Source: Raja brachyura
Taxonomy: Eukaryota
Reading direction: 5' to 3'
Assembly: GCA_963514005.1 (NCBI GenBank)
Contig: OY740787.1
Coordinates: forward strand, 72,106,001 to 72,170,000
Length of the DNA stretch: 64,000 nt
A program made the position numbers and the translations under genes. The notes beneath the pieces are model-generated. The model saw only the letters and a program-made list of their open reading frames with translations, had not been told where the DNA came from and did not search any database. Below, one piece after another: positions 3,007 to 49,550 of this stretch (positions are counted from its first letter, which is position 1; the number at the start of each line of letters is the position of its first letter).

Positions 3007-3753
3007 TCAGATTCAGATTCAATTTTAATTGTCATTGTCAGTGTACAGTGCAGAGACAACGAAATGCATTTAGCATCTCCCTGGAAGAGCGACACAGCAA
3101 ATGATTTGGATAAATAACAATAAGTGTCCGGGGGGGGGGGGGGGGGGGGGTGATTGGCAGTCACCGAGGTACGTTGTTGAGTAGCGTGACAGCCGCCGGA
3201 AAGAAGCTGTTCCTGGACCTGCTGGTTCGGCAACGGAGAGACCTGTAGCGCCTCCCGGATGGTAGGAGGGTAAACAGTCCATGGTTGGGGTGAGAGAGGT
3301 CCTTGGCGATGCTGCGCGCCCTCCGCAGACAACGCTTGCTTTGGACAGACTCAGTGGAGGGGAGCGAGGAACTGGTGATGCGTTGGGCAATTTTCACCAC
3401 CCTCTGCAATGCCTTCCGGTCGGAGACAGAGCAGTTGCCATACCAAACTGTGATGCAGTTGGTAAGGATGCTCTCGATGGTGCAGCGGTAGAAGTTCACC
3501 AGGATCTGAGGAGACAGATGGACCTTCTTCAGTCTCCTCAGGAAGAAGAGACGCTGGTGAGCCTTCTTGATCAGAGTTGAGGTATTGTGGGTCCAAGAGA
3601 GGTCGTCGGAGAGGTTGACTCCCAGGAACCTGAAGCTAGAAACACGTTCCACCTCCGTACCGTTAATGTGGATGGGGGTGTGCGTGCCGCCCTTGGACTT
3701 CCTGAAGTCTACAATGAGCTCCTTGGTCTTCTTGGAGTTAAGGGCCAGGTTGT
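3007..3753 (-). mobile_element. Rex1/Babar-clade LINE, 5'-truncated
   Basis: ORF 3161-3652 reads ERVSSFRFLGV...KKAHQRLFFLRRL...LLPSGRRYRS, the RT C-terminus typical of Rex1. It ends in a short tandem (CTGAAT)n tail. Confidence 0.85.
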
Positions 3754-4299
3754 CAAACTACATTTTGAGTACATGACAAGAAAACCAGAGTAGAACTGTA
3801 AAATCGTTACGTTATCTCATTTCTCACATAGGGAGAGAATACCGCCATACTTCCAACTTTTCAAATGAGAACAAGGAGAATACATTAGATGCCATTATAA
3901 GCCAACTAGAAATAGTAGACAATTACCACTTCTTTATTTACAACCAAGAGCAAGGAGAAATATTTAATATTTAACAGAGCTGGAATTGTTTGCAAATAAC
4001 TGCAATTTGATGTACTCATCAAATAGAATTGCTTGTGAAATTCTGGAATCCAGCCTGAGGAAATGGCTGCTAGGTGGGATGCAAGGTGCATCCAGACATC
4101 CGAAGTTTTCCAAAACCAGGCTACAAATGGTAGATAGCAGAAGATACATGCAGTGAAGTGCAAGAAAAGGTTCAGGAAAGTGAAAATATTGCTAAAGAAA
4201 TGCATATGGGAAAATGCACGCACAATGTGAATTGAAGTTTAATTTCTTCAAAGTTCAGAATGGAGGAGGTGAACTGTGCACGGACAAAGATAAGGTAAG

Positions 4300-5076
4300 T
4301 CAAGTCAAGTCACTTTTATTTCTATAGCACATTTAAAAAACAACTCTCATTGGACAAAGTGCTTTACATTGGTGGAGGTACTAACGTTACACAACAGTGG
4401 TTCATAGATTAAGTACATACATAAATACATACATATAGCCCTCCCTCAGAGGACGTCAAGAAATGCTTGAGAGTAAAGATGATTTTTAGTCTCGATTTAA
4501 AGGAGTCGATGAAGGGGGCAGTTCTGATGGGAAGAGGGATGCTGTTCCACAGCCTAGAAGCTGCAACCGCAAAGGCATGGTCGCCCCTGAGCTTATGCCT
4601 AGACCGCGGGATGTTCAGTAACCCCAAGTCAGACGATCTGAGGGACCTGGAGGTGGTGTGGTGGGCAAGCAGACTTTTGATGTAGGTGGGGGCAAGCCCG
4701 TTAAGGGCTTTGTAGACATAAAGAAAGATCTTGAAATTTATTCGGAACCGCACTGGGAGCCAGTGGAGAGGCCAGAATCGGGGTGATATGGTCCCTTTTT
4801 CGGGTGACCGTCAGGAGTCCTGTTGCGGCATTTTGGACCAGTTGCAGGCAGGACAGGGAAGATTGGCTGATGCCAGTGTAAAGGGAGTTGCAGTAATCGA
4901 GGTGGGAGGAGATAAATGTGTGGATGATCTTTTCGAGGTCATCAAACTGGAGGAATTGTTTTATTTTAGCTATTGTCCGAAGCTGGAAGAAGCTAGCTTT
5001 TACCACGGCATTGACTTGTTTGTCAAATTTCAATGCTGAGTCAAATATGAGGTAATTTTGTCAAATTTCAATGCTG
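4300..5076 (-). mobile_element. L2-clade LINE, 5'-truncated
   Basis: ORFs contain LDYCNSL, LQLVQNAA, HITPILA and RINFKI..KALNGLAP.YI, all L2 motifs. AATAAA plus a (GACTT)n tail; probable TSD AGGTAAG at 4293-4299 and 5077-5083. Confidence 0.85.
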
Positions 5077-5670
5077 AGGTAAGATTCAGACCACTAAAGA
5101 ACCAAAGGTGAATTCTGAGAATGGACACTCACTGTGACAAAACGTTGGTGCAAGAGCATTCAGTGATATTTCAACTTAAAAAAAGGTTGAGTTTTATTCT
5201 TTTGACAGATGTATTTATTGCTTGCAAGCCTGCTGAGCCAGCATGTGTCAGCCAACTACAACCCAAATAGAAAATACGGCATAGTCGAAGGATCAGGCAA
5301 GAATACAAGATACTCCCCAATGTACTATTCTTACTGATTTGGAGGAGAATCATAATTGGAACGTAACATTTCATGGATCTATTATTTCCCTGCACCCATG
5401 CGATTTTACCATCAATTATCCTGCAATTTTAAAAGAAAAACAAGTCTTGCATCATCTAACTGAATGCTTCAAATACACTAGAGATTCCTTCTTTCGATTG
5501 AGCATTTGACCTCCATTTGTAACTAAACAGTATTTCCCAATCCCTTTGTCTGCAGTGGAATTTTGTCTAATCCAATCATCAATCAGAATATGTTGGCCCA
5601 AGTGTTCCTCAGGACAACTTCCTGATAGTGCTCAATTAACCAAGGGCACTTCAGCTACATCATTGTGTTT

Positions 5671-5765
5671 GTCTGAAGAAGGGTTTCGACCCGAAACGTC
5701 GCCTATCTCCTTCGCTCCTTAGATGCTGCTGCACCCGCTGAGTTTCTCCAGCCTTTTGTGTACCC
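5671..5765 (+). mobile_element. 95-bp PLE-derived insert with hammerhead motif
   Basis: 11-bp TSD TCATTGTGTTT at 5660-5670 and 5766-5776; the sequence matches the PLE 3' end. Confidence 0.85.
5673..5700 (+). ncRNA. Minimal type I hammerhead ribozyme motif
   Basis: CTGAAGA-A-GGGT(TTCG)ACCC-GAAA-CG-TC: CUGANGA core, UUCG-capped helix II, GAAA, palindromic ACGU in place of helix III and a GUC cleavage triplet. Helix I is very short. Confidence 0.7.
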
Positions 5766-6799
5766 TCATTGTGTTTTAAGTCCAGTGGTAATCTAGTGAC
5801 TCATCCATATATTAGACAAATTATACATCCATTTCCACGATGAAAATGGAACAACGGTTCTGTATTCTCCTCAACCACAGCAAGAACCTGGCTTGGTTCG
5901 AAACTGAAGTTCTGAACAAATACTTCTCCAGCTCAGAAATCCCTTACGTTTGCATTTTTGTCATGCATTCTTTCATTTTCAATTGTTTGTTCTGTGCTAT
6001 TATTTTTCAAATTGGGAATGATGAGATCCCAGATTGACTTCAACTTCCTTGCCAAGTATAACTCACCTGGAGATAGTTCAGTTGCAGACTGCAGTGTAAT
6101 GATGTAACTGAACAGGAACTAAAACACATTGATTTCATTGCTGCCTCTGCATTTTCTTGATTCCTTCTTGAGCCTTCCGCCTCTGTCAATCTGTTATAGG
6201 AGGGATGAAATGGGGCAGAAGTCATACTATATTGGATTCAAAATTGGCTGGATCTTAGGAACAGGAGGGTAATGGAGAAAATTGCTCTCTGTTGGAAGTC
6301 TGTGACCATTGGTGCACCACAGGGATCAGCGTGGGATTCTTCTGGTTTGTGATATGTATTAAAAACTTGGATGTGAATGTGGGATGAATATGTCAGTTTA
6401 ACAATATTCTAACAGATAAACAATGACTAAATTGAACACAATCCTTAGTTTAATTTTATAAATTTGGAAACTAAAGGATCTTTTTTCCTTCAGTCTTTCC
6501 TACTTCAAACTTTATATTCCATGTTCACTTTTGATTCATAAATAGTTTTAGCTGCTCCTTGCAAACCCTGGGAGAAAGTAGTATTTGAATATCTTAATCA
6601 ATGCCTAGCATCACCAACTCATACTCTATTATGAACAATGATAAAGTCAGATGACCTCTCTCCAAAAGGTCTTGCAACAATTAGCACTTGCATTTTCTGC
6701 CTTTGTGATAAAATACAGAACTGGAACATTTTGTTACATGCACAGTATTTTCACAGGGGACACATCTTGTTTAACCCATCATGGTTGACAACTTCTCGT

Positions 6800-8199: not shown

Positions 8200-9230
8200 C
8201 ATTGGACAACATTGGATGTTGGGGGGTAGAATGCTGACATGGATAGGAAATTGGTTGGCAGACAGGAAACAAAGAGTACGGATTAACGTGTCCCTTTCAG
8301 AATGGCAGGCAGTGACTAGTGGTGTATCACAAGGCTCGGTGCTGGGACCGCAGCTATTTACAACATACATCAATGATTTAGATGAAGGGATTCAAAGTAA
8401 CATTAGGAAATTTGCAGACGACACAAAACTGGGTGGCAGTGTGAACTGTTGGGTGAGTGAGCAGATGGGCATGGCAGATGCAGTTTAATGTGGATAAATG
8501 TGATAAAAGGGGAAGTACAACGGGATCTGGGCGTCCTTGTTCATCAATGAAAGTAAGCATGCAGGTACAGCAGGCAGTGAAGAAAGCGAATGGCATGTTG
8601 GCCTTTATAACAAGAGGAATTGAGTACAGGAGCAAGGAGGTCCTTCTGCAGTTGTATAGGACCCTAGTGAGATCACAGCTGAAATATTGTGTGCAGGTTT
8701 GGTCCCCTAATTTGAGGAAGGACATTCTTGCTATTGAGGGAGTGCAGCGTAGGTTTACAAGGTTAATTCCTGGGATGCCGGGTCTGTCATATGCTGAGAG
8801 AATGGAGCGGTTGGGGTTGTATACTCTGGAGCTTAGAAGGATGAGAGGGGATCTTATTGAAACATATAAGATTACTAAGAGTTTGGACACGCTAGAGGCA
8901 GGAAACATGTTCCCGATGTTGGGAGAGTCCAGAACCAAGGGTCACAGTTTAAGAATAAGGGGTAAGCCATTTTGAACGGAGACGAGGAAACAGTTTTTCC
9001 TCACAGAGAGTTGTGAGTCTGTGGAATTCTCTGCCTCAGAGGGCGGTGGAGGCTGGTTCTATGGGTACTTTCAAGAGAGAGCGAGATACGGCTCTTAAAG
9101 ATAGCGGAGTCAGGGGATATGGGGAGAAGGCAGGAATGGGGTACTGATTGGGGATGATCAGCCATGATCACATTGAATGGCAGTGCTGGCTCGAAGAGCC
9201 GAATGGCCTACTCCTGCACCTATTATCTAT
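8200..9230 (+). mobile_element. CR1-clade (HER1-like) LINE 3' fragment
   Basis: ORFs contain GVSQGSVLGPQLF, KFADDTKLGG and EGVQRRFTRLIPGM; the 3' tail is GAATGGCCTACTCCTGCACCT. Confidence 0.9.
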
Positions 9231-10744
9231 AAGTTGCTCTCAAGGATAAAGGGAGAAAAGACCACACAAGTGGCAGCTCCCATGAAGGAAAGTTTGCGCA
9301 TGGATTCTGCTCCAGAAGATTCAGATGAGGTTACAAAGGGTGGCTGATACGCACATACAGTGAAATCATTGGTGCAACATCATAAAGCCCTCGTTCAATA
9401 ACAAGGAGTTGAAAGATTGGCAGCAGTTTGCATAGGACTTCGCGGATGGCTTGAAGCTTATGCTTCCCAGCACAAAGTAGCAATCAAATCCATTAACATA
9501 GTCAGAGAGCCAGTCTCCACGTTGAATCTGAAGAGTGATGTCTCGCTTATCAATATAATATGCACAAAGGTCATTCAATATCTGAGTGTTGCAGTGGATG
9601 CTCAAATCATGCAACATCAACTTCCTGTCATTAAACTTAGATAGTCCCACGCACATTCAGTAACATTTCTATGCAAATCCAGATGAGAATTTGATTATCT
9701 TATGTCATAAGTTTATGACTTGCGTATTGACTCATAAACTTGTGGTTTAACAGGTTGACTCAAATGCAGATGGAAAAATGGACAGAGAATATCAGAACAA
9801 CCACCTCTAAAACCTCTCTCCAAATACACACCCATACTGAGTATTCCAAGAAATTTCTACTTTAATTAATATTAAAACTATCTGCATTATTTTGTTTTTG
9901 AAACCATCATGATTTGCTGTCATGGTAACATACAAGCAGTATATTTTTGAGTCTTAAAGGCTGCTGAGAGCAGGTGTTTGGGAGATCTGAGGGCGAGTTG
10001 CTTATTCGGGACACAGTAGCGAGGTAGGGCTGTTGGTGCAGCATTGTGGTACTATAACAATTAAATGAAAGTACAGGACTTACCACGGAACAATTCATCA
10101 CAGCACGAAGAGGATCCAGCAATCCAGACAGGATTCAATAGTGGTAATTTTCAAGCTTGCCCACAATGTTTCAAAAGCAATGTTGCATCAGCATTAAGTC
10201 ACCAGCTGAAAACAGAAGTTGCATCAACACTGTACATTTCACCAGCTGCAAGGGCTGTGAATCCTTAGTTCTGGAGTGATGCCCAAGGCAGACATGTGTC
10301 GATTTTTGGATAGTAGCCTAATGAAGGGAGATGGGGATAGTTGAGCAATGTAGAATCGTGAGTGGACACAAAATGCTGGAGTAAATCAGCGGGACAGACA
10401 ACATTTCTGGAGAGAAGGAATGGGTGATGGGTCAAGACCCTTCTTCAGACATTTTTGTCTGCTCCACGTTAAATCATGACACCTCTTTGAATAGTTGAAG
10501 AGCTTAAAAGGCTAATAGCATCCAATAACAATACTTTGAGAGTCTGCATGTAGAGTTAAATATTGAAATGTGAAAGTTGCCCTCCGTGTTACCTTTCTCC
10601 TGCATGGCCTGTGCTATAAACCTCACCAATAAATTCAGTTATATCATTACAAGGGAATAAAACAATAAAATTTCACCACATACAGCAATAAAATGTTACA
10701 TTGGTGCATTCAGATCTCAGCAAAGTTTTACAATGGAAGTCATT

Positions 10745-11079: not shown

Positions 11080-11517
11080 CAAATAATCCAACATTGCAAT
11101 TCCGAGGTTTCATTCTATATCTTTTTTACTCTCTAATATCTTCATGTATTTCCTTTATTTCCCAAAATGTATCATTAGGTAAAATATACTTATTCCCATC
11201 TCCTGATAAGCCTCTATGTGTCCAGTGAAAATTCATGAATCTCACTGATTGAACTGCTACACTGCTGCCTCTCTGCTTACAGGCATTATTGATTTCCTAT
11301 AGTAGGCACTATACTATATAAATTGATTGGTGGTTGTAACATACAGCTCAGACATCAGAAATTTATTGTTTGTGGACAAACAAATATTAGGATATAGAAT
11401 AACAAATACTATTCCTCATAGAAACCAGGAACTGAAGATTCTGGTTGACATAAAAGGACACTAAGTGCTGGACTAATTATGGTGGGCAGGCAGCATATCT
11501 GAAGAACATCGATACGT

Positions 11518-11545
11518 GACGTTTCGGGTCGGGATCCTTCTTCAG
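11518..11545 (-). ncRNA. Minimal hammerhead motif in a PLE 3' fragment (about 11420-11551)
   Basis: The reverse complement reads CTGAAGA-A-GGATCCCGACCC-GAAA-CG-TC; the core is intact with one helix II mismatch. Confidence 0.6.
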
Positions 11546-11779
11546 ACTGAGTACTTTGAATGCAAAATCTATAGCTAGATATGATCCCCATTTCCAGTGT
11601 AATCCAACTAATTATTCCCCTGTATTTCATTAAAAAAATGATAATTGTTTCACATTTCTAGGTATAATATGACTGATGGACAGATTATGTGATTTCATTT
11701 CAATAGACTGTCAGTGTCATTGTAAAAGTAAAAACTATGATGAGCTGAAAAATTCACCTGACAGACTCTGTGGTTGAAA

Positions 11780-12447: not shown

Positions 12448-13268
12448 CTGGAGCAAGTGGGACCCATTGGGTCCTGTCCCCCAAGGCGTGGGGGGGGGGA
12501 GAGCGTGCAGCATCACAGGGTCACAGCGGAGGGCGTGGACCCGGGGGCGGATGTGGACCCAATGACCCCGAGCGAGGTCGTGGGCAGGCGTGGTCTCGAG
12601 GACCCGAGCGAGGCCGTGAGCGGGCGTGGACCCGAGCGAGGCTACGTACGGGCCTGGGCCCGAGGACCCCGAGCGAGGCTGCGGGTGGGCGTGGACCCGA
12701 GGACTCGAGCAAGGCCGCGGGCGGGCATGGACCCGAGGACTCGAGCAAGGCCGCGGGCGAGCATGTGTGAAACGGGCGTGGACCTGAGACATGGTGCACG
12801 CCCACCTTATTGTGACGTCATATCTTTGAAGGTCACAAAGTAGGAATGAACCGTGAAGGAGTGCATCAAGCAGTGAGAATGAAGCAGGTCGACCGTTGGG
12901 TAGGTGGTGAAGCATTTGAGGAATGTTCTGGAAATGCGGCTCTTCCCATGACGTTACTCGAAGCTCGTGGAATATTCTGTGTGTGAAACGGGCTCCGACC
13001 CGAGCCATCATGCCTGCCCACCTCATTGTGCCGTCATCAGTGGAAGCTGGTCATTTTAAAAGGGAGTTAAAAAAAAACAACTTTGATCAGCAATAAGTCG
13101 TGATATAAAGCATAAAATCTTAAATGAAGCTGTTCACTGCTTAGAGGGGACAAATGTGTGTCAGAATATGTAAATATCTTATTGTTACCGCATAGTGTAT
13201 TTGCGTAAATATAAAAACACACACATATACACACACACACAAGATGAGAGTTTTAAAGTTATTAGAGA
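12448..13268 (-). mobile_element. Non-autonomous Helitron with internal GC-rich minisatellite
   Basis: The minus strand reads A|TCTCTAATAACTTTAAAACTCTCATCTTG(TG)n ... hairpin GGACCC-AAT-GGGTCC, then CACTTGCT-CCAG|T. It is inserted between A and T with no TSD. Confidence 0.75.
12530..12790. repeat. GC-rich minisatellite (GGGCGTGGACCCGAG... units)
   Basis: Repeated GGCGTGGACCCGAG(CGAGGCC/GACTCGAGCAAGGCC) units. Confidence 0.85.
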
Positions 13269-14114
13269 TAATTTGCTGGTGTAATTACAGAGTACTTAAG
13301 GTGGACAGAGAATTTTAGTGATCAAAAGGAAAGTACCAAAGTGAATATTTTAAACAAAAATTACAATCACATTTAGAAATTAATATAAAACCTATTTTGC
13401 TAGGGGCTAGTCGAAAGAGTAAACACATAGATCCCAAATTCACAGCAGAAATTGTATTCAGAGAGAATTTTCATTGTTGTGATTTTGCCATCTTCGATTT
13501 GCAACCTATTCAGACATGATTTCCTGCTGTGAACACAGAATCAGTCCATTAACAATTAAAAGTGCACAGTAGAAGAATATGCTTAAATGCTTGTTTTGTG
13601 TGTGAAGCCTGTTGTTGCACTTGCAAAGTGATAAATCAAACACGATCTTATCTACAATTGTAATTAGTGACAACACTATATCACAATCATTAAGCTTGTA
13701 ACTGCCCAGCTTTAACATCTGGGGATTTACATAACAAATCAATGCAGTGATAACAAAACAGTAAAAAATGTGCATGCAAAAGATTTTGATTTGAATTTAG
13801 ATAAAGATTTTTCTTGAGTCGAATATTAAATAAATACCAAGATATACAAATTCACATGTAATATTCCCAGGTCCAAATGATACCCCATTCAACAAACTAA
13901 TAATGGTCTTAGATTTAAGTGCAGGAAAATGACCAGTGGATTCACTGAATACAAATCTAAATCCTCTCTGGAGACAATCTGCCAGGCATCAGAGCAATTG
14001 ATGATGCCTGTCAATCATCCAGACGAGACAACTGCAGCACACATTTAAAGTGCAGTCTGCAACTGGGTTTGTTCGTTTCAGAGACCATTACTGCGAGGAT
14101 TTGGCCCAGCCCTT

Positions 14115-14142
14115 CTGAAGAAGGGTCTCGACCTGAAATGTC
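14115..14142 (+). ncRNA. Minimal hammerhead motif in a short PLE-derived insert (about 14115-14206)
   Basis: CTGAAGA-A-GGGTCTCGACCT-GAAA-TG-TC; a second, decayed copy follows at about 14248. Confidence 0.55.
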
Positions 14143-14545
14143 ACCCATTCTTTCCCTCCAGAGATGCTGCCTGTCCCGCTGAGTTACTCCAACTTTTTGT
14201 GTCTATCTTCTGCTTTTCAAGCTTTTTCCCCCCCCGATTCCATTAGTCTGAAGAAGGATCCCAATCCAAAACATTGTCTGTCTATGCCCTCCACATATTC
14301 TACCTGATCTTCCAGAATTATATTTCTAAGTTTAATCTTGCATAAGGGAATCCTAGAAGGGTGATGGGAGAAATTGTGCAAACTGGGATGGTGGGGGCAA
14401 TACTTGAAATTGGGGAATTCAGTGCTCATACCTTTAGGATGTAGGCTACCCAAGCAGAAGATAAGATTCTGTTCTTCCAGTTTGCCTGTGGCCTCAATAT
14501 GAATGAATGAGGCCAAGAGCAGAAAGGTAGACATGGATATGGGAA

Positions 14546-15136
14546 GTAGAATATTGTACCTCCTCCAACCTCATCTACTGTATCCGCTGTTCCAGGTGTG
14601 GACTCCTATATATCGGCGAGACCAAACGCAGGCTCGGCGATCATTTAGCTGAACACCTCTGCTCAGTCTGCCTTAACCTACCTGATCTCCTGGTTGCCAA
14701 CAATAACTCCCCCTCCCATTCCCACAGTGACCTTTCTGTCCTGGGCCTCCTCCATTGTCAGCGAGGCCAAGCATAGTTTGAAGCTGCTTACACCCCAGTG
14801 GTATGAATATTGACCTCTAACTTCAAGCAACCCTTGCCTTCAGTCTCCCTCCATCATTCTCCCCATTCCAGTTATTTGACTCGTCTGACTGTCCTCGTTT
14901 ACATTTTATCTCTGTTTGCTTTGTTGTAACCTTCTCTAAGCTAACAATGGCCTATTCTACATTTTCCTTGATCACCACCCCCTTTCTCTCGTTTTCACAC
15001 CTAACACTTCCTTATCTCGGTACCTCCCTTTGCCCTGACTCAGTCTGAAGAAGGGTCTTGACCCAAAACGTCACCCATTCCTTCTGTCCAGAGGTGCTGC
15101 CTGTCCCGCTGAGTTACTCCAACATTTTGTGTCTGT
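14546..15136 (+). mobile_element. Penelope-like element 3' fragment (GIY-YIG plus hammerhead end) nested in an older opposite-strand PLE
   Basis: Encodes CTSSNLIYCIRCSRCGLLYIGETKRRLGDH. 14-bp TSD CATGGATATGGGAA at 14532-14545 and 15137-15150. Confidence 0.85.
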
Positions 15137-16029: not shown

Positions 16030-17615
16030 CAGTGCATTCAGAAAGCATTCAGACCCCTTCACTTTTTCCACATTTTCACCCACGTTACAGCCGTATTCTA
16101 AAATGGATTAAAAAAAAATTAATCATCAATCTACACACAATACCGCATAATAAATAAGCAAAAATGTTGGTGTTTAGAAATTTTTACAAAGTAATTAAAA
16201 ATAAATAACTGAAATATCACATTTACATAAGTATTCAGACCCTTTGCTGTGACACTTAAAATTGAGCTTTGGTTCACCCTGTTTCCATTGATTATCCTTG
16301 AGATGTTTCTACAACTTGATTGGAGTCCACATGGTAAATGAAATTGATTGTACATGATTTGGAAAGGCCCACACCTGTCTATATAAGGTCCCACAGTTGA
16401 CAGTGCATGTCAGAGCAAAAACCAAGCCATGAAGACGAAGGAACTGTCCGTAGACTGAGACAGGATTATGTCGAGACACAGATCTGGGGAAGAGTATAAA
16501 ACAGTTTCTGCAGCATTGCAGGTGCCGAAGAACACAGTGGCCTCTGTAATTCTTAAATGGAAGAACTTTGGAACCACCAGGAATCTTCATAGAGCTGGCC
16601 GCCCTGCCAAACTGAGCAATCGAGGGAGAAGGGCCTTGGTCAGGCAAGTGGTCAGAACCCAATGGTCACTTTGGCAGAGCTCCAGAGTTCCTCTGTGGAG
16701 ATGGAAGTTGTCCAGAAGGCCAGCCGTATTGGCAGCACTCCACCAATTAGGCCTTTATGGTCATGTGACCAGACAGAAGCCACTCCTCAGTAAAAGGCAC
16801 ATGACAACCCACTTGGAGTTTGCCAAAAGGCACCTAAACAAGATTCTTTGGTCTGGTGAAACCAAGATTGAATTATTTGGCCTGAATGCCAAGTGTCACG
16901 TCTGTAGGAAACCAGGCACTGCTCATCACCTAGCCAATACCATACCGAAGCATGGTGGTGGCAGCATCATGCTGTTTTTCAGTGGCAGGAACTGACAGAC
17001 CAGTTACGATCGAGGGAAAGATGAACTGTGCAAAGTATAGAGAGATCTTGGATGAAAACCTGCTCCAGAGCGTTCTGGACCTCGACTGAGGCGGAGGTTC
17101 ACATTCCAACAGGACAACAACCCTAAGCACACAGCCAAGACAACGCAGGCGTGGCTTTGTGACAAGTCTGTGAATGTCCTTGAGTGGCCCAGCCAGAGCC
17201 CGGACTTGAACCCGATTAAACATCTCTGGAGGTACCTATAAATAGCTGCTCATTGATACTCCCCATCCAACCTGACAGAGCTTGAGAGGATCTGCAGAGC
17301 AGAATGGGAGAAATTGCCCAAATACAGGTGTGCGAAGCTTGTAGCTTCACACCCAAGAAGACTTGAGGCTGTAATCGCTGCCAAAGGTGCCTCAACAAAG
17401 TACTGAGTAAAGGGTCTGAATACTTATTTAAATGTGATATTTCAGTTATTTATTTTTAATTACTTTGCCAAAAAATTTGAAAGACCTACTTTTGCTTTTT
17501 TATTATGGGGTAGTGTGTGTAGATTGATGATAAAAAAAAGAATTTAATCAATTTTAGAATAAGGCTGTAACGTAGCAAAATGTGGAAAAATGTGGAATAC
17601 TTTCTGAATGCACTG
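16030..17615 (+). mobile_element. Tc1-like DNA transposon (IR/DR type), both ends present, decayed
   Basis: TA TSDs at 16028-29 and 17616-17; termini CAGTGCATTCAGAAAG...CTTTCTGAATGCACTG. Long TIRs at 16030-16245 and 17409-17615 contain the internal direct repeat ATTCAGACCC. Confidence 0.95.
16429..17406 (+). pseudogene. Tc1 DD34E transposase pseudogene
   Basis: ATG at 16429; GRPAKL motif; ILWS(G)ETKIELFG; KHGGGSIM; FQQDNNPKH with D at 17113; SPDLNPI(K)HLW with the E position exactly 35 codons after the D; ends AKGASTKY*. It has frameshifts and D->G and E->K catalytic changes. Confidence 0.92.
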
Positions 17616-18278: not shown

Positions 18279-18400
18279 GTTTAAGAAGGAACTGCAGATG
18301 CTGGAAAATCAGAAGCTGAAAGGCAGACAAAGGTGCTGGAGAAACTCAGGATCTATGGAGCGAAGGAAATGGGCAACGTTTCGGGCCGAAACCCTTCTTC
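18279..18400 (-). mobile_element. 122-bp PLE-derived insert with hammerhead motif (core 18375-18402)
   Basis: 14-bp TSD AGGAGCAAGGATGT at 18265-18278 and 18401-18414. The minus strand reads CTGAAGA-A-GGGTTTCGGCCC-GAAA-CG-TT. Confidence 0.85.
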
Positions 18401-18984: not shown

Positions 18985-20816
18985 ACGGGTGAATTTATTA
19001 TGAGGAACAAGGAAATGGCAGACGAGTTGAACAAGTACTTTGGATCTGTCTTCACTAAGGAAGACACAAATAATCTCCCTGATGTACTAGCGGCCAGATG
19101 ATCAAGGGTGATGGAGGAACTGAGGAAATTCACATTAGGCAGGAAATGGTGTTGAGTAGACTGATGGGACTAAAGGCTGATAAATCCCAGGGCCTGATGG
19201 ACTGCATCCCAGGGTACATAAGGAAGTGGTTCTAGAAATCGTGGATGCATTGGTGATCATTTTCCAATGTTCTATAGATTCAGTATCAGTTCCTGTGGAT
19301 AGGAGGGTAGTTAATGTTACCCCACTTTTTAAGAAAGGCGGGAGAGAGAAAACAGTGAATTACAGACCAGTTAGCCTGACATCAGTGGTGGGGAAGATGC
19401 TGCAGGCAATTAATAAAGATGAAATGGAGGCACATTTGGATAGCAGCAACAGGATCGGTCCAAGTCAGCATGGATTTATGATGGGGAAATCATGCTTAAC
19501 TAATCTTCTGGAATTTTTTGAAGAGGGAACTATGAAAATGGACACGGGAGAGCCAGTGGATGTAGTGTACCTGAACTTTCAGAAAGCCTTTGATAAGTTC
19601 CCACATAGAAGATATTAGTGGGCAAAATTAGAGCACATGGTATTGGGGGTAGGGTACTGACATGGATAGAAAATTCGTTGACAGACAGGAAACAAAGAGT
19701 AGAGATTAACGGGTTCCTTTCAGAATGGCAGGCAGTGAATAGTGGGGTGCCGCAAGGCTTGGTGTGGGGCTATATACATTAATGATTTAGATGACAGGAT
19801 TAAAAGTAACATTAGCAAATTTGCAGATGACACAAAGCTGGGTGGCAGTGTGAACTGTGAGGAGAATGCTATGAGGATGCAGGGTGACTTGGACAGCTTG
19901 GGTGAGTGGGCATATGCATGGCAGATGCAGTTTAATGTGGATAAATTTGAGGTTATCCACTTTGGTAGCAAAAACAGGAAGGCAGATAATTATCTGAATG
20001 GTGTTAAGTTGCGAAAAGGAGAAGTACAATGAGATCTGGGGGTCCTTGTTCATCAGTCACTGAAAGTAAGCATGCAGGGACAGCAGGCGGTGAAGAAAGC
20101 GAATGGCATGTTGGCCTTCATAACAAGAGGAGTTGAGTACAGGAGCAAAGAGGTCCTTCTGCAGTTGTATAGGGCCCTCGTGAAACCACACCTGGAGTAT
20201 TGTGTGCAGTTCGGGTCTCCAAATTTGAGGAAGGACATTCTTGCTATTGAGGGAGTGCAGCGTAGGTTCACAAGGTTAATTCCTGGGATGACAGGACTGT
20301 CATATGTTGATAGAATGGAGCGGCTGGGCTTTTATACTCTGGAATTTAGAAGGATGAGAGGGGATCATATTGAAACATATAAGATTATTAAGGGTTTGGA
20401 CATGCTGGAGGCAGGAAACGTGTTCTCAGTGTTGGGGGAGTCCAGAACCAGTGGCCACAGTCGAAGAATAAGGGGTAAGCCATTTAGAATGGAGATGGAG
20501 GAAAAACCTTTTCACACAGAGGGTTGTGAATCTATGGAATTATCTGCCTCAGAAGGCAGTGGAGGCCAATTCTCTGGATACTTTTAAGAGAGAGTTAGAT
20601 ACAGCTCTTAAAGATACCGGAGTCAGGGGTTACGGTGAGAAGGCATGAACGGGGTACTGATTGTGGATAATGAGAAGATAGACAAAAATGCTGGAGAAAC
20701 TCAGCGGGTGAGGCAGAATCTATGTAGCAAAGGAATAGGTGGATAATCAGCCATGCTCACATTGAATGGCGGTGCTGGCTTGTAGGGCCAAATGGCCTAC
20801 TCCTGCACCTGTTGTC
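18985..20816 (+). mobile_element. CR1-clade LINE RT region and 3' end
   Basis: ORFs contain NYRPVSLTSVVGK, QHGF..GKSCLTNL, FQKAFDK, KFADDTKL and HLEYCVQF, with frameshifts. Confidence 0.92.
20672..20738 (-). mobile_element. 67-bp PLE-derived insert inside a CR1 tail
   Basis: 9-bp TSD GTGGATAAT at 20663-20671 and 20739-20747. Confidence 0.75.
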
Positions 20817-22669: not shown

Positions 22670-23577
22670 CAGTACGAATAAAGGAGTAGACTATTTTCTA
22701 AATGGGGAGAGGATAAAAATTCTGAAGTGCGAAGGGACTTGGGAGTGCTGGTGCAGGATTCCCAAAAGGATAATTTCCGAAAAGGTCTGAACTAGGGTCG
22801 TGACCTGAAACCATCCATTCTTTCTCTCCAGAGATGCTGCCTGTCCCGCTGAGTTACTCCAGCATTTTGTGTCTTTCTTCGGTTCAAACCAGCATCTGCA
22901 GTTCCCTCCTACACAGGATAATTTACAAGTTGAATCAATAGTAAGGAAGGTAATTGCAAAGTCAGCATTTATTTTGAGAGCACTAGAATATAAAACAGGG
23001 CTGCAATGCTGAGGCTTTATAAGGCACTGGTCAGGCTGCATTTGGAGAATTGAGAGCAATTTTGGGCAAGTTTGGAGGGATGTACTGGCGTTGGAGGAAG
23101 TTTACAAGATTAATCACAGGGATGACTGGGTTAACGTACAGTATGAGGAGTGTTTGATGGCACTGGGCCTGTACTTACTAGAGTTTAGAAGGGTGGACCT
23201 CATTGAAACTTACTTAATCGTGAAAGGCCTGGGTAGAATGAATGTGGAAAGGATATTTCCACCAGTGGGAGAGTCTAGGACCAGAGAACACAGCCTCAGA
23301 ATAAAAGGATGTACCTTTAGAAAGGAGAAGGCAAGGAATTTCTTTAGTCTTAGGGTGATGACTCTGAGACATTCATTGCCACAGACAGCTGTGGAGGCCA
23401 TCATTGGGTATTTTTAAAGCAGAGATTGACAGATTCTTGATTCGAGGATGTGAAAGGTTATGGGCAGAAGGCAGGAGAATGGGATTGAGAGGGAAAGATA
23501 GATCAGCCATGATTGAATGGCAGAGTAGAAACAATGGGTCGAATGGACTAATTCTGCTCCTATGACTTATGAACTTA
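22670..23577 (+). mobile_element. CR1-clade LINE 3' fragment containing a nested PLE-derived insert
   Basis: CR1 C-terminal ORF at 23091-23417. The nested insert 22777-22914 has a 10-bp TSD AGGATAATTT at 22767-22776 and 22915-22924. Confidence 0.85.
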
Positions 23578-24739
23578 CAGCTTTACAACTTCCCATCTCT
23601 GGCATCAGTCTCCGTTGTAAACTTAAATATCGTTTCTCACTGTCCACAAAACCACCAATTTGGGTGTCCTCTGCAAGTTAACTTACAATGTTAACAACAT
23701 TGTCATCCAAATTGTTAACGTACACAATAAGCAGCATTGGACCAAACATGACCCTCACAACACTTCACTAGTCATAGGCTTCCTTTAACTCCTTCGTCCA
23801 AGTCCATTTTGCTCCTTCCTCCAAGTCAATTTTGAATCCAATTGGTTAGCTCACCTTGAATTCCATGTGCTTTAACCTTGCAACTATACCGTAAACCCTC
23901 ATTATAATGGACCTAGGGGAGGGAAATGGTGGTTCGTTATTGCCAATTGTCCTCTCTGACTGTAGGAGAGATGACTAATTAATAGAATATCATTACACAA
24001 GTACTAGAAACAAAGAATTGCAGATTCCGGTTAATACACAAAAACACAGAGTGTTGGAATAACTCAGTGTGACAGGCTGCAACACTGGAGAACGTGCATA
24101 AGTGACATCTCGGGTTGGGACCCTAAGTATGTAACCCAGGTGACTTGATGGCCCCGGCCTGCTGGTAGTCAGGGGAGAGGCGTGGATCACCAGAGTCATC
24201 GGTCGTGCCTTATGGGCGGCCGAAGTGTATGCAAGGGACACGGTGGCAGTGTAGGCAGGCATGGCCCGGAAGCTGTGTGGGCTGGCGCGTGTAGCCGTGA
24301 AGGTCGGTAGGTCCGCCTGAAAGAGGCTGGGGAGGTGGTGCTTGCTTGGAGTGGTGTCACAGCCCCGCCTTGCGGTGAATGACAGAAGGCCCGTCTGCTA
24401 TAACTGAAATCTATTACAAAGAGGTTTGTAATAACGAGGGTTTACTGGAGGCAACACCATCAGAACACTTTAATATCTTGGAATACTTTATTGTCACATG
24501 TGACCAGGCACAGTATAATTCTTTGCTTGCATCCGCAAGGTATGCAAAATGTCGCCACATAAATGGCGCTGCCAAAGTCACCAAGTATCCCCGCCAGCTC
24601 CTCCGGTGTTCCTCCCCCGACCTCCCTCACTGTGGTCCCCCCCATGGCAGATCCTCCAGTTCTTCACCCTCCCCCCACTCACAGTGGTTCCCCCAGCCCC
24701 TCATTGCCCGCTGACTATGGCACCCGAGACCCACACCAC

Positions 24740-26165
24740 CGCAGCGAGGCCCAACTACCTTCAGGAAGCTCCGCCGTCGCTCCCGAGGATTCACCGTTGC
24801 AACTGAGGCACCGCTGCCGCCGCCGCCGAGGCTCCATCACTGCCACCACCCCACTGATGCCGTCGATGCCCCACCACTGCCACCGAGGCTACAGCAGGGC
24901 AGTCAAGGCCCCCCTCACTGCCAAGGCCTCACCGCCATTGATCCCCCAATTGCCGCGAGGTTCCACCGCTGCTTGGCCCCACTGCCGCCACCAAGGTCCC
25001 ACCTCCGTCTGCAAAGCCCTGCCGCCGAGGCCCCAGCGCCACCTGCAAAGTCTCACCATGAGGCCCCACCACCGCTCTCCCGCCGCCGCAAGGCCAGACC
25101 GCCGCCACGAGCCCCGCGGATGCCCAACCGTCAAGGCTTCACTGCCGCCAAGCCCCATCGGCGCAGGGTTCCATCGCCGCCGTTGAGGCTCCATTGCCGC
25201 CCTCTAGGCCTCATCACCGCCGCAGCCCCACAGAGGCCCCGCTGCCAAGGCCTCGCCGAGGCCCCACCGGTACCTGATGCCAAGGCCCCACCATCACATC
25301 GAGGCCCCAACGCCATTCTTCCGCCACTGCCACTGAGGCCCCACAGCTGCCGTCGAGTCTCCATTGCCGCTGTCTAAGCCCCATCACCGCCGAGGCCCCA
25401 CCGTTAATGTGACGCACCACCACTGCCTCCAAAGCCCAGCCATTGCTTGCAAAGACCCACCGCCGCCGCGAGGCCCCACCGCTGTCTGTAAAGCCTTACC
25501 GTGAGGCCCCACCGTCGCTCTCCCACCACCGCGAGGCCCGACTGCCGCAACCGACGCCCCACCGTTGCCGCGAGGCACCACCACCGCCTGCAAACCTCAG
25601 CCTGCGAGGCCCCTCAGCCACCTACATAGCCCCACTGCAAGGCCCCACTGCCGCTGCTAGGCTCCTCAGCCGCCAAGGGCCCACCGCTGCCATCGAGGCC
25701 CCCCCGTTGTCGCCGTTGAGGTCCCCCACTGCCGCGGCTTCACCGCCGCTGAGGCCCCATCGCCGCGAGGTTCCATCGCCGCCGATACCCCACCACTGGC
25801 GCTGAGATGACCACACTGCCGCTGCCGAAGCTTCACTGCCGCCGAGGCCCCACAGCTGCCTTTGAGGCTCCATTGCTGCCATCTAGGCCGCACCACCGCT
25901 GGGGTCCCACCACTGCCGCGAGGTACCACGGCCACCTGCAAAGCCCCACCGCCTCCAAGATAGCCCCACCACCACCGCTGAGAAGGCCCCACTGCTGCCG
26001 CGAGGCACCACCGCTGCCTGCAAAGCCCTGCCGCCGAGGCCCTGCCGCAGCCTGCAAAGCCCCACTACCGTGAGGCCCCACCACCGTCGAGGCTTCACCG
26101 CTGCCGCAAGGCCCCATTGCCACCGCGAGGCTCAGTTGGCCACCGTGAAGCTCCATCGGCTCAGG
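24740..26165. repeat. Degenerate GC-rich minisatellite (about 17-18 bp GAGGCCCCACCGCCGCC-like unit)
   Basis: Dozens of AGGCCCCAC/AAGCCCCAC cores followed by CGCCGC/CACTGC. The many overlapping Pro/Ala/Arg ORFs here are composition artefacts. Confidence 0.9.
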
Positions 26166-27967
26166 CAGGCTTCATCGCCCGTCTTCTCCATGGCCTCCTG
26201 GAAGGTGATCTGTCACCGCGGCCTCCTGGTAGGTGGTTCAGAGTCTGCAAATTATCCTGCAAAAAACACCTGCTACAATTTTTACATTTTGAGTACGCAA
26301 TCTGATTACTCAGCCCTCTCCTCTCACTTTCCCAACCCAATTAAAGATGCTTAGAGAACAACTTACAATCATGTTGCACTTCAATGTTTCAAGAGGTTTT
26401 CTCCAAAGTTATATGAAATTAACCCACAGAAGAAAATAGAGGCACGACCAGGGGCATTGTAGAGTTAATTGGGGGGGGGGGATATCAAGAGGACACCTGT
26501 GATATTTATCATCTGACATCATAGAAAGAAACACAAAGCTGTGACTTGTCCTTGAGAAACAAGGAAGTGCAGGTGCTGGAATCCTGAGCAAAACATAAAA
26601 TGCTGGACTAACTCAGCAGGTCAGGCAGCATCTCTGGAGGACATGGATATGTAATATTTCAGATCAGCACTTCATTTCTTTGGACCTGGAGTTCCCTTGT
26701 AAAAACTTGATCCCTTCACAAAACATCATGGGAAACCTGGCAGAAATGAGTTATGGCAAAATTACAACATATTCAACTAGGAACAGCTATAAGGACCTTT
26801 ACAGCCTTAAGAATTTAAACTTCCAAAGTGCAGCATGAGACTGGTAAACAAGATACTGGTCAATCACGGTCAATTATTTATTTCAACTAAATAAACCCAT
26901 AATAAACTGTTTGGGGTTGAAATTATCCTATGCCTGTCAGGTTGTAGAAATAAGCTGTAGGAAAACAACTTGACCTCCAGATTTTTGATTGAGCTTGTTA
27001 ATTAAATAAAGACATTGAACAGTTGACTAAAGCTCAATCTTTTTTTTGAGATACATAATTAGTTAAAGACTAAGTGGGTTTGATAAACTACTGTTTCCAA
27101 ATAATTGACAATGTAAGCACAACCTGACCTTCAGAGTCTTGGCAAAGGCATCTGATATCCACGGAAGAGCTCAATGATCCAAATGTTCCAACTTTTGTTT
27201 CACTGATTGTACTCGGGTTTCAAAACTGGTGGATGTCAAACTTACATTCAATTTAAAAAAAAAAATTTCACATCATCCAGATTGCTAGATTTAATACAAA
27301 TCCTACTTAAATAAGAACCCTGAACATTTATTTTCAACTGAGCTTTAAGCTTTTGTGCAACTGCCTAGTATATACTACCCCAAGATGTATGAAGACAGCT
27401 TTGTATTATTTTACATTTCACAATTGTGCAAGCTAACCACTTCTTTGTGATGCACCTTTTTGCAATGTATTTTTCCATGTACTCAGTTTAAAATGGAGTA
27501 TTTTTCTCAGAGATGTCGATGAGAAGGAAGATTGATTAAATTCTGAAAAGTCAAACACCATCTGTGGTCTGTAAAATAGAACTTAGATTTCAATCTTACC
27601 GGTGAACTGTTGAAGGCTAGTGTTACAATGCAGATAGAAAAGAGTGAGGTGTGAGAAAGAAGGGAAGATTGGTGACAAGGACATAAGTATCACTTTTCTA
27701 TGGGTTTCACACAAAGTGAACAACCTGGCAGTTGAACTCTGGGAACTATCAACATCAGCAGGAAATGCTTTACAAGCTCAACTTGCTGGAAGCAGAAAGT
27801 GATGGTCCTGGCCCATTAAGGAAGCTTCTCATGTTCTCATGATGGGTACATGGAGAAGAATGATTTAGAAGGGTACAGGGCAAACACAAGCAAATGGGAT
27901 TACCTTAGATAGCCATCTTTATCAGCAAGGATGAGTTAGGTTGAAGGGCCTGTTTCTCTGCTGTATA

Positions 27968-28181
27968 CAGACACAAAAGGCTGGAGTAACACATTTGCTC
28001 AGGCAGCATCTCTGGAGAAAAGGAATTGATGACTTTTGGGTCGAGACCCTTCTTGAAGCAATGTGAAGAAGGGTCTCGACCCGAAATGTCACCTATTTCT
28101 TTTTTCCAGAGATGCTGCCTGACCCACTGAGTTACTCCGGCCTTTTGTGTCCGTCAGTATCTGCAGTTCCTCCACACACAC
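27968..28181. mobile_element. Inverted (head-to-head) dimer of PLE 3' ends
   Basis: A minus copy at about 27969-28054 and a plus copy at about 28064-28180. 15-bp TSD TTTCTCTGCTGTATA at 27953-27967 and 28182-28196. Confidence 0.85.
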
Positions 28182-33364: not shown

Positions 33365-33922
33365 CTGTCTGTCTATGCTCCCGGAGCTACGCCAAAATGG
33401 TAAATGATAGCGAAAAAGAAATTGCACCACCTTAATCACAATTGTCCTGTGGTTGTTTTGTCAAGTTTCGTTCAGATTGATGTTATATTTCACAAGTTAT
33501 TGACATTTTTACATTTACAAAATCCCAATTTGAGAAAAATGTCTTCCATGTTCTTACAGTTATGACGTCACAATGGGATTGTAGCCCTGCTTGCGACAAC
33601 TTGAGCAGGTGCAAATGCATTTTTCTTAAAGTCACAGCGCACTGAATTTTTTTTAAACAGGGAGGGTGAATAGGGCAAAATGAGCAGCCCCATGCGCAGT
33701 TGGGGATTATGGGTAAGTGGTGGAATATTGCATTGGAGTAATGGCTTGCGTTGGGGGAACGGGTAAGTGGTGGAATATTGCATTGGGGAACGGGTTGTGT
33801 TGGGGGACCAGGCCTCCACTGGGGGCTATGGGTGTGTGGTTGAATATTGAGTTGGGGGAACGGGTTGCGTTGGGGGACCAGACCTCCTGTGTGACAGGGA
33901 CCCAACAGGTCCCACTTGGTCT
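33365..33922 (+). mobile_element. Non-autonomous Helitron (5' terminus lost)
   Basis: The body is homologous to 340-480 and 34470-34600. The 3' hairpin is GGGACC-CAACA-GGTCCC followed by ACTTGGTCT. Confidence 0.7.
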
Positions 33923-34411: not shown

Positions 34412-35025
34412 TATATATTACTAAAACTCTCATCTTGTTTGTTTCTGTGTGTGTGATCCTGAAATTACACCAAAATGGCACACGATAGCGCAATAATTTT
34501 TGCACCACCTTACTTACAATTGTCTTGTGGCATGTTTTCATCGTTTCATTCAAATTTATGTTATATTTTACAAGTTATTCACATTTTTAACTTTACAAAA
34601 TCCAGTTTGAGAAAGAATGACTTGAACACAGCAGTGGCAGTAACAGGTATGACAACGTCACAATGGGATCTCATTTGCAACAATGTTGTAATCGCAGAAC
34701 ACGGAGTCCTGGGAGAGGGAGGCTGAACAGGAGGGGGAGGGTACTGGGGGAGGCAGGGGAAGTGGAATTTGATTTTTTTTAAAGTTCTGACAGCATGTGC
34801 TTGCAATTTTTTTAAAGTTTAAAAAGAGGGAGGATGAAGAGGAGGAGGAGTTCTGGGGGATAAGGGGAAATGAGCGTCCCTGCACAGTTGGGGGCTATGG
34901 GTAAGTGGTGGAATATTGCGTTGGGGGAATGGGTAAGTGGTGGAATATTGCGGTGGGGGAATGGGTTGCGTTGGGGTACCAGACCTCCCGTGTGACAGGG
35001 ACCTGACGGGCCCCACTTGATCTAG
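34412..35025 (+). mobile_element. Non-autonomous Helitron, both ends present (614 bp)
   Basis: The 5' end is T(A)TATATTACTAAAACTCTCATCTTG. The 3' end has hairpin GGGACCT-GAC-GGGCCCC, then ACTTGAT-CTAG|T. Confidence 0.75.
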
Positions 35026-35662
35026 TGTGTACCTAAATGTGAGCTATCAACCTGGTAAGGCTACAAAGGACTGTATACAGTTGTTAAGTAGCCTTGCCTG
35101 ATCCTAGCGATCTCATATCCAGGATATGCAATTTTACCAAATTAATCCATGAATTGTGGTTATTTTATGCGGCTTAGAGCATACAAGAACATTTTGGGGC
35201 ATGAAGACATGCCCCAAAATGTGATTAACCAAAGGGATCCTTTAAGTATTTGCATCCATCTTCAACCAGAAGTGCAGAGCAAAACATTTTATCTTCCTTC
35301 TAGTCCGTGCCAGCACTGAAGCCAGTCTCAGCTAATTTGATGGATTCCATGTGAAATTAAGAAAACTGATCACTCTGCATACAATAAAGATAATGTGACC
35401 AGAATCACTAGTGGCTGTTTAAGTTGCAATGTTGAAGGCATGTACAGCAGAAATAGCTACACTGTTTCAGTACACCACAGTGCCATCTGTCTGACAATGT
35501 GGACAGTTGTCTGCCTTGTCACAAGCAAACAGGACAAATTTTGTTTGGCTACCTATTGCCCCTTGACAAGTGTCCCAACTTAAAACATCACCCATCTATG
35601 TTCTCCAGAAATGCAGCCTGGCCCGCTGGGTTATTCCAGCACTTTGAGTCTTTTATTGCCCC

Positions 35663-41707: not shown

Positions 41708-41892
41708 ATGTCCAGCGACAGACAGAGGTCTGACGACGAGAGTCCGAGTACGAGCAGTGGGAGCTCGGATGCCGACCAGCGTGACAACCCGCAGGAGGAG
41801 AGGAAAGAGCCATCCTCACAGCAACAGCCGAAAAAGAAAGACCCCAAGGTATCCAGCAAAACAACAGCAAAACTCTCCACCAGCGCTAAAAG
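41708..41892 (+). CDS. UBE2E3: Ubiquitin-conjugating enzyme E2 E3, first coding exon
   Basis: [26 protein letters not shown]...[14 protein letters not shown] matches the UBE2E3 N-terminal extension. Donor AG|GTAAGT at 41892/41893 (phase 2). Confidence 0.95.
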
Positions 41893-42351
41893 GTAAGTCC
41901 GGCCCTTTCTTCCTTTATTTAAAATCTGTTTTTGCACTTGAGTACCGGCATTTTGCCAATTCTGGTTGCACTCCTTTAAAGTCCTTATCGAATATGTCAA
42001 TATAAACACTCCTCTCCTCATTTGCATATAAACTTGAAAAGAGAATAATTCGGGGAAAGCGGATGTCTACCGGGATTAATCTGCCTTATTTGAATATTTA
42101 CTGCACTCTTCTACCATTTGTAGTCAAAATTTTATACATTGTCAAGCGACAGATAGTGGAAATTTATGAAAACTTGTCCTGTTATGGGATTTGAGTATAA
42201 CGCTGCTGAGAACAAAGAGGAAGCAGCCATGTTTTCCACTTTGGTTGGGTGAGCTGCTGAGAAAAGGATGGTGATAGAGGGCACTGTAATCGTTCTTTTA
42301 CATCTAAATGCAGCACAGTATTTTGTACTGAGTATCTCCATCAATTTTCAG

Positions 42352-49425: not shown

Positions 49426-49550
49426 GAAGAAGGGTTTCGGTCCGAAACGTTGCCTCTTTCCTTCGCACCATAGATGCTGCCGCACCCGCTGAGTTTCTCC
49501 AGCAATTTTGTCTACCTTCAATTTTCCAGCATCTGCAGTTCCTTCTTGAA
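49426..49550 (+). mobile_element. 125-bp PLE-derived insert with truncated hammerhead core
   Basis: 12-bp TSD CATTGCTTTCAT at 49414-49425 and 49551-49562; the insert starts GAAGAAGGGTTTCGGTCCGAAACGTT. Confidence 0.85.

Follow-up and report, generated by a model that had tools for sequence, protein, structure and literature searches.

We analysed 64,000 nucleotides of the skate Raja brachyura (contig OY740787.1, positions 72,106,001 to 72,170,000; hereafter the window), in which short inserts flanked by target-site duplications (TSDs) share their sequence, including all or part of a minimal type I hammerhead ribozyme motif, with the ends of a Penelope-like element (PLE). The inserts are most probably by-products of the PLE's own internally primed target-primed reverse transcription (TPRT), and they have a fixed 5' edge. 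A preliminary description, made from the sequence alone, had proposed a non-autonomous ribozyme-containing retro-RNA mobilised by the PLE. Part of that proposal holds, in that the inserts carry the minimal hammerhead of a PLE pseudo-long terminal repeat (pLTR), are mobilised by the PLE, as indicated by TSDs and shared 3' ends, and are abundant; an independent retrozyme or short interspersed element (SINE) is unsupported.

Short inserts as ends of a Penelope-like element

The insert unit is the 3' terminus of PLE copies with reverse transcriptase (RT) and GIY-YIG endonuclease (EN) in three subfamilies. It terminates the long copies 49783-51252 and 14546-15136, as had been described, and a third one, 1934-2672, which had been missed. 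The first, a 5'-truncated Neptune-type copy of subfamily A on the minus strand, comprises a broken RT, a CX4CXXC linker, GIY-YIG, a pyrimidine spacer of ~80 nt and a hammerhead with the change U4C, and it ends at +92 (end positions are counted throughout from C3, the first core base of the hammerhead). No TSD was found for this copy; its 5' limit is that of the preliminary description, and tblastn with two related proteins, P0009 and P0003, covers RT and EN in 49956-51021. The 5'-truncated copy 14546-15136 (plus strand, subfamily B) has a GIY-YIG piece, a 217-nt pyrimidine spacer reaching to CTCAG at 15043 and a hammerhead with the change G12A; it ends at +91, has a 14-bp TSD and is nested in an older antisense PLE piece (14394-14545 and from 15137 on). 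The third copy, on the minus strand and of an older subfamily, consists of a GIY-YIG piece, CAG/GTGAG at 2394, a 378-nt spacer of 75% pyrimidine, ATCAG/ at 2017 (slashes mark the predicted splice positions), a hammerhead with a deletion and an additional 3' tail. Other GIY-YIG fragments of this PLE family are seen at 2394-2672 and 57469-57593, the second with no hammerhead end nearby.

The coding pieces of the long copies are 66-76% identical to proteins of Leucoraja, Rhinoraja and Rhincodon (best 3 of 15 matches). In a relative of 902 amino acids (P0009), which aligns with the RT and EN pieces of the window, both RT and GIY-YIG score above the Pfam cut-offs; the broken window peptide gives GIY-YIG at E 0.002, under the Pfam cut-off. 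The window open reading frame (ORF) 50107-50574 has a CX4CXXC linker, CNRKRCYTC, and a CXXC within the GIY-YIG motif, IYCIRCSRCQLIYIG, and the same is found in P0003 and P0009. A CX2-5CXXC linker and a CXXC between GIY and YIG mark Neptune and Nematis PLEs (PMC8557442), and by these motifs the parent element appears to be a Neptune-type endonuclease-bearing (EN+) PLE, Nematis also having the linker. Like EN+ PLEs, the family combines an RT with a C-terminal GIY-YIG, and it also shows their optional tail of 30-40 bp (as two classes of 3' end), an inverted 5' copy (27968-28181) and TSDs.

The seven short inserts listed in the preliminary description all stand at their coordinates, six of them with exact TSDs of 9-15 bp and the seventh with an imperfect one. 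Insert 5671-5765 (plus strand, subfamily A) extends from -2 to +92 between the 11-bp TSDs TCATTGTGTTT at 5660-5670 and 5766-5776. Insert 18279-18400 (minus, A) starts between 0 and +2, has the tail (3' end +123), a 12-nt internal deletion and a 14-bp TSD, whose final CT completes the core. Insert 22777-22914 (plus, B), also with the tail (+127), starts at -2 after 8 extra nt and has a mutated core and a 10-bp TSD, and 49426-49550 (plus, A) starts at +1/+2, without C3, ends with the tail at +126 and has a 12-bp TSD. The head-to-head pair 27968-28181 lies within a single 15-bp TSD, its arms stopping at +3 and +1; one arm ends at +89 and the other has the tail. Insert 55913-55999 (minus, A) runs from +3/+4, without CUG, to +90, and its TSD measures 13 bp if one mismatch is allowed and 8 bp if the repeat is to be exact. 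The 67-bp insert 20672-20738 (minus, A; 9-bp TSD) has no core. An older short insert absent from that list, 35563-35653 (plus), starts at about C3, ends at +91 and has a 9-bp TSD. As a control, 400 random sites were searched for TSDs in the same way, and 6.5% of them scored at least 9 and 3.25% at least 10; at 7 other decayed loci tested (long copies aside) no convincing TSD was found.

A profile built from 10 window copies matched the unit 23 times in the 64 kb (E<=0.5; one weak match, E 0.17), 10 times on the plus and 13 times on the minus strand, and had no match in the reversed window.

The fixed 5' edge and the two 3' ends

Seven of the eight TSD-bounded inserts begin within 7 nt (-2 to +4), and so do 12 of 19 ends when copies without a TSD are included; compared with a uniform 76-nt range, the binomial p is 4e-7 and 1e-8, respectively, for a 7-nt window that was picked post hoc. 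The seven starts thus fall inside the catalytic core or immediately ahead of it, ~28 nt upstream of the predicted cleavage site. This sharp clustering, with a length distribution that is not smooth, bears out the view of the preliminary description that the inserts are not just random truncation debris. Insert and target are joined with 0-2 nt of microhomology.

The 30-mers upstream of 14 of the 15 short ends listed are 37-60% pyrimidine, the exception being 14247 (80%), which carries spacer; those of the three long copies, which consist of spacer, are 73-93% pyrimidine. Just ahead of the hammerhead edge, the long copies show a pyrimidine tract and YCAG. We take YCAG to match the splice acceptor and, as YCAGT, the initiator (Inr) consensus, and the hammerhead 5' edge is predicted to be both acceptor-like and Inr-like. 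An Inr-like sequence, TCACT, is also known from the pLTR of a rotifer element (PMC3846280). A pLTR intron (GT...AG) is predicted from the sequence of copy 1934-2672 at 2017-2394 on the minus strand, and its 3' splice site is the hammerhead 5' edge. The 217-nt spacer of the long copy of subfamily B starts with GC, and the shorter spacer of the long copy of subfamily A has no clean donor and an eroded acceptor. Host-exon chimeras or back-spliced circles were rejected as a source of the inserts, since the TSDs abut the hammerhead edge and no extra sequence is shared (22777 has 8 extra nt). In the literature we found neither a fixed 5' edge at a predicted acceptor nor a treatment of this repeat in skates or sharks or of solo pLTR inserts; most subscription papers, Repbase and Dfam lay outside the search, and a library entry is possible.

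Eleven 3' ends are clear: seven lie at +89 to +95, both long copies tested included, and four at +118 to +127. Short and long copies have the +91/+92 end and the TSD lengths in common, and the second end lies ~33 nt further. The second class corresponds to the optional tail of 30-40 bp known for PLEs (PMC8557442).

In copies with the tail, such as 49426-49550 and 22785-22914, we also observe a long hairpin that is closed by an inverted repeat of 8 bp, AGATGCTG / CAGCATCT; the first class of 3' ends lies inside it and the second just beyond. Each copy has a further acceptor-like site (a pyrimidine run, then TAG or CAG-AG) at +45 to +52, for instance at 5716-5723, just before a conserved ATG. 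The frame of this tail ATG is open and in register in several copies, which makes it a candidate ORF start or alternative acceptor; no protein starting in this way was found by pattern in 279 proteins, and tblastn with 133 gave only short matches at chance level.

Contigs of four public runs (X1, X5, X6 and X8) were compared with 49300-51400 at 85% likeness; none of the runs listed as holding the sequence is recorded as RNA, which says nothing about expression. Summed depth in the two hammerhead and tail bins exceeds that of the top endonuclease bin 3.8-fold in X6, 2.5-fold in X8, 4.5-fold in X1 and 10-fold in X5, values that are no copy numbers and are read only as a step plus a gradient. The hammerhead and tail in X6 are ~50 times as deep as the RT region and five orders above the unique flank, and further upstream of the hammerhead the depth of the run contigs declines steadily. 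Among the 24 rows of loose ends listed, those with low-agreement flanks lie before 49425 (X1, 39 contigs, final letters CAGTC) and behind 49517 (X6, 224) and 49552 (X5, 42), all three coinciding with insert edges in the window; an X8 row behind 49525 (211) runs on as tail sequence. Head-to-head joints at the hammerhead edge occur in X8, from 49870 to 49427 and from 49866 to 49427, among the 12 joints listed. No spliced-form joint is present among the best-supported 15 of 377 joints, which is no proof of absence.

Hammerhead core, lineage and further copies

The motif at 5673-5700 (plus strand) has CUGAAGA, a bulged A, a helix II of GGGU/ACCC with a UUCG loop, GAAA, CG and UC, with predicted cleavage after 5700. 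It shows the sequence features of minimal PLE hammerheads (CUGANGA, a bulge, a G-C-closed helix II, GAAA, a palindromic CG and UH). Helix I is just GU (5671-5672) with GC (5701-5702), that is 2 bp, as the preliminary description had warned, rather than 4-5 bp. A strict descriptor of the minimal hammerhead matched three times in the window (5673+, 14115+ and 18402-) and never in 100 shuffles; an Rfam scan of the window gave no match at E<=1. The core is whole in 2/7 of the listed inserts (5673 and 18402), whereas C3 at least is missing from 49426, from 55999 and from each arm of 27968, the core of 22777 is altered and 20672 has no core. Most inserts carry all or part of the motif, but to call the family hammerhead-bearing was an overstatement.

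Agreement with the majority among the 15 copies that span the motif is 138/160 (86%) in the core, where the first columns include later-starting copies, 108/120 (90%) in helix II, 45/60 (75%) in loop 2 and 694/852 (81%) in the tail. A core conserved above its flanks, by which the ribozyme proposal was to be judged, is barely seen in these values. Of 85 helix II cells 89% are paired, more than in any of the six slid controls, in an alignment that includes a partial duplicate and decayed rows aligned through the flank, and four of the five two-sided cells counted come from such decayed rows. The proposed covariation check of helix II yields one clean compensatory change, G-C to A-U (14247); a U-G variant occurs in three subfamily A copies, and G-U at the closing pair looks like CpG decay.

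A zebra-shark PLE model (1/279 proteins) ends in SLMKGLRPKRQ, the frame-equivalent of LKKGLDPKRH in the skate; judged from the protein, the first box would differ at its free N7 base and nowhere else. Comparison of the two motifs suggests that the hammerhead is conserved at the level of the parent elements and decays in the copies. Most monomer folds tie up the core by pairing it to the pyrimidine stretch that follows, and not one of the nine is stabler than shuffles (z -1.47 to +0.70). A dimer of a 33-nt copy with helix II and an intermolecular ACGU reaches -12.7 kcal/mol, 3.4 above the minimum free energy of -16.1 kcal/mol. Best read as a passenger inherited with the parent element, the hammerhead is predicted to require a dimer or the PLE protein and to show no activity as a monomer. 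A longer helix I, in which ACUCA upstream would pair distally with UGAGU of the tail, was rejected; it is present in the fold of the long copy of subfamily B, but is reduced to 3 bp in the other subfamilies. Minimal PLE hammerheads have been described as occurring mostly singly at scattered places and as probably belonging to truncated PLEs, with inactive monomers and low dimer activity (PMC4209133). As a ribozyme the find is ordinary, PLE pLTR hammerheads and dispersed single copies being already published.

In a tree of 21 rows and 95 columns, the copies group by subfamily, with one long copy each, and subfamily A (5 short, 1 long) has a support of 99/96. The approximately unbiased (AU) test rejects a single clade of the 9 TSD-bounded short rows apart from the 3 long rows (p 2.2e-6), and it likewise rejects a clade of the long rows; it was run on a short alignment and leaves room for separate short masters within each subfamily. 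The short copies are therefore interspersed with long PLEs and do not form the clade that the preliminary description had considered, nor the lineage apart from its autonomous partner that is expected of a SINE. Everything in the insert is also present in the long PLE end. The tRNA, 5S or 7SL head with an RNA polymerase III promoter typical of SINEs was not found in the window (ARAGORN, 0 genes; Rfam, 0 matches), although degenerate heads could escape.

Non-LTR retrozymes consist of tandem units with a hammerhead in each and give linear and circular RNA of 170-400 nt (PMC7229834). They derive from PLE pLTRs and are present in the one chondrichthyan sampled, and one of the nine dimers tested cleaved (10.64898/2026.07.22.740005). 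In the window, none of the 32 tandem-repeat rows holds the unit, and tandem units with at least two complete hammerheads were not seen. The sole dimer-like arrangement, 14114-14309 (plus strand), consists of two adjacent copies 133 nt apart which belong to different subfamilies, the second with a mutated core. Only 1/8 of the TSD-bounded inserts is bounded by the cleavage site. The inserts behave like PLE termini and do not pass the retrozyme and SINE tests that were run.

Several further copies are decayed. Copy 10356-10450 (minus strand) starts at -2, preceded by a short stretch like an inverted 3' end, and 45827-45912 (plus) also starts at -2; no TSD was found for either. Copy 11423-11552 (minus), with the tail, keeps ~7 nt of the upstream spacer (ACTCAG), and 56141-56256 (minus) starts at -1 and has the 3' half of its hammerhead duplicated internally. 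Several partial decayed repeats of the hammerhead 5' part follow one another at 56141-56290. Directly upstream of -2, 10451-10462 and 22777-22784 resemble the reverse complement of the 3' part of the unit and are possibly tiny inverted arms. Outside the window, pattern scans for the unit found no copy in viral, metagenome and prokaryote genome contigs, and a search for related loci in viral contigs gave 37 pattern matches, of which none was confirmed.

Among other features, 41708-41893 (plus strand) is an exon match to the N-terminal part of a ubiquitin-conjugating enzyme of the UBE2E family (UBE2E2, E 6.5e-13), and many inserts are probably intronic or near a UBE2E-family gene, in both orientations. 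ORF pieces at 3161-3757, 4409-4810, 8457-8975, 19184-20587, 36626-37924 and 62047-62409 are presumably related to the RT of long interspersed elements, and one at 16459-16995 presumably to a Tc1-type transposase. GC-rich, loosely tandem repeat tracts occur at 24563-26354 and 12541-12763. A short tandem unit with GTTGGGGGAAC, in periods of 16-50 bp, is found at 1636-1672, 33711-33807, 34887-34966 and 56840-56967, and these four tracts are likely one other repeat family.

Origin of the inserts and known systems

In the anole element Poseidon_Ac, both 3' ends are internal RT start sites, and the RNA must extend beyond both of them, the first 172 nt of the ORF being needed (PMC11167929). Both DNA strands are cut and extended, ribozyme cleavage requires the protein and is dispensable for insertion, and no RNA reads start or end at the cleavage site (PMC11167929). 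If the skate PLE works in a similar way, its GIY-YIG endonuclease would nick AT-rich DNA, and the RT would start inside the RNA at one of two sites, which lie ~92 and ~125 bases past the hammerhead, and would run off the RNA end at the hammerhead 5' edge. Such an end might arise because the RNA starts there, at an Inr-like YCAGT, or because its 5' end is trimmed as far as a protein-bound hammerhead domain. Priming on both target strands would explain head-to-head pairs such as 27968-28181, and products without the downstream protein-binding region, and often without part of the core, would mostly be dead ends.

Run-off at an RNA end is our preferred but tentative explanation of the fixed edge. 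We prefer it because, if the anole rule holds, a start site in the upstream pLTR would always be followed by the binding region and would give only short products ending at the RNA 5' end. Several points weigh against this account. The RT start sites and the binding region are borrowed from a Poseidon-clade element, and the element here is Neptune-type. In D. virilis Penelope and Chlamys-3 the reported start site precedes the pLTR intron and does not coincide with the acceptor, so that a block at the acceptor would fit better than a start site there, and no TSD-bounded copy starts at -3, the A that an Inr would use. One insert (20738) begins at +29/+30, 1-2 nt past the predicted cleavage site, a single case (n=1) which suggests that the RT may occasionally copy cleaved RNA. 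A search for a PLE protein starting with the tail ATG frame gave two candidates, none significant. Finally, the whole sample is one 64-kb window, and the run contigs are probably all DNA and cannot show the ends of molecules.

The inserts could also be by-products of the same PLE whose edge marks a block: while copying unspliced RNA from the 3' pLTR, the RT would usually halt at the 3' splice site. It might be stopped there by splicing factors on the RNA or on entering the pyrimidine tract, and the minority passing would give long, intron-retaining copies. We regard this as possible, though on balance rather unlikely. The edge does coincide with a YAG after a tract of 73-93% pyrimidine in the long copies, CAG/GTGAG lies 378 nt upstream in copy 1934-2672, depth declines steadily upstream as expected of a poorly processive RT, and the best-supported joints of the run contigs hold no spliced form. 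Moreover, the intron of D. virilis Penelope ends at the 5' strand of helix I (PMC4209133), a 46-nt exon precedes this 75-nt intron (PMC2377424), Chlamys-3 is reported to have a 398-nt intron at the same place, and the pLTR introns common to both elements are said to be kept on transposition. Nevertheless, the tract is partly kept in only 2 of 14 copies of the edge region (11546 and 14247), which means that the RT rarely drops off within the tract; the long copy of subfamily B has a GC donor and that of subfamily A has none, and the blocking step itself is conjectural. Plain random 5' truncation, with a boundary that merely appears where the low-complexity upstream spacer becomes hard to align, is highly improbable. 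PLEs are known for heavy 5' truncation and highly abundant 3' ends (PMC8557442), and depth does fall towards the 5' end; however, the TSDs set the boundary without any alignment, with 7/8 starts in 7 nt, the sequence upstream of the short copies is not pyrimidine-rich, and the two arms of head-to-head pairs end at one and the same position, by which this explanation is already largely refuted.

An independent non-autonomous retro-RNA, whether a retrozyme or a PLE-dependent SINE, would be transcribed, process itself and be re-inserted in trans by the PLE protein. The inserts resemble SINEs in their discrete lengths, their fixed 5' end, their TSDs and their excess, several-fold, relative to long copies; PLEs are known to have given rise both to non-autonomous derivatives and to retrozymes, and the insert that begins at the cleavage site and the 133-nt dimer-like pair (14114/14247) would fit such an RNA. 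We consider it quite unlikely, given that the short-copy clade is rejected, that 5/7 of the listed inserts lack a complete core, that no tandem-repeat row holds the unit and that the 5' ends lie upstream of the cleavage site; in addition, the dimer-like pair mixes two subfamilies, no tRNA head was found, and all nine monomer folds bury the core and are no stabler than shuffles.

It is also conceivable, if doubtful, that PLEs of skates and rays make a discrete small RNA or RNA end exactly at the 3' splice site of their pLTR intron and that the PLE protein re-inserts the hammerhead domain of 95 or 125 nt as a class of its own. The copies would then be a very large natural primer-extension experiment on pLTR formation and intron retention. 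The two fixed 3' ends support internal initiation by the RT in a genomic Neptune-type element; until now, such initiation has been demonstrated in vitro for a single Poseidon element. With its fixed 5' edge at a predicted acceptor, the unit gives a countable handle on two questions about PLEs, the origin of pLTRs and the retention of introns. With ~1 copy per 3 kb here and strong-looking splice acceptors, it may also be a major and easily mis-annotated repeat.

Compared with known systems, the motif resembles the minimal type I PLE hammerheads of PMC4209133 in its core boxes, bulged base, G10.1-C11.1 pair, missing helix III loop and palindromic 15.2-16.2 ACGU, and it shares the 2-bp helix I of the D. 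virilis hammerhead (PMC4209133). Helix II has 4-5 bp here and 7-8 bp there, and the accessible text of that paper discusses no cartilaginous fish and reports no fixed 5' edge of solo copies. Metazoan non-LTR retrozymes (PMC7229834; 10.64898/2026.07.22.740005) are similar in their type I hammerhead, PLE pLTR ancestry, lack of coding sequence, dispersed monomers and TSDs of >4 bp, but they form tandem units with complete hammerheads and RNA of 170-400 nt, whereas the inserts here are monomers of 67-138 bp, mostly with incomplete cores and without arrays. Chlamys PLE derivatives such as MRC1 have their 3' end in common with autonomous families, as here; as described in PMC8557442, they form separate families with their own pLTRs and head-to-tail insertions, and none such was seen in the window.

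No full-length copy is present in the window, and the Neptune clade is assigned by motifs only; the element nevertheless resembles Neptune-clade PLEs (PMC8557442) in its RT, CX2-5CXXC linker, C-terminal GIY-YIG with CXXC, pLTR, 5' truncation, inverted 5' copy and tail. Inserts of Poseidon_Ac (PMC11167929) belong to another clade; a fixed 5' end of short copies is absent from the main text of that paper, and nothing was found in its three text supplements. The likeness to Poseidon_Ac lies in two 3' ends ~30-35 nt apart, roughly 90-130 nt past the hammerhead, in insertion ends unrelated to the cleavage site and in priming that is possible on both strands.

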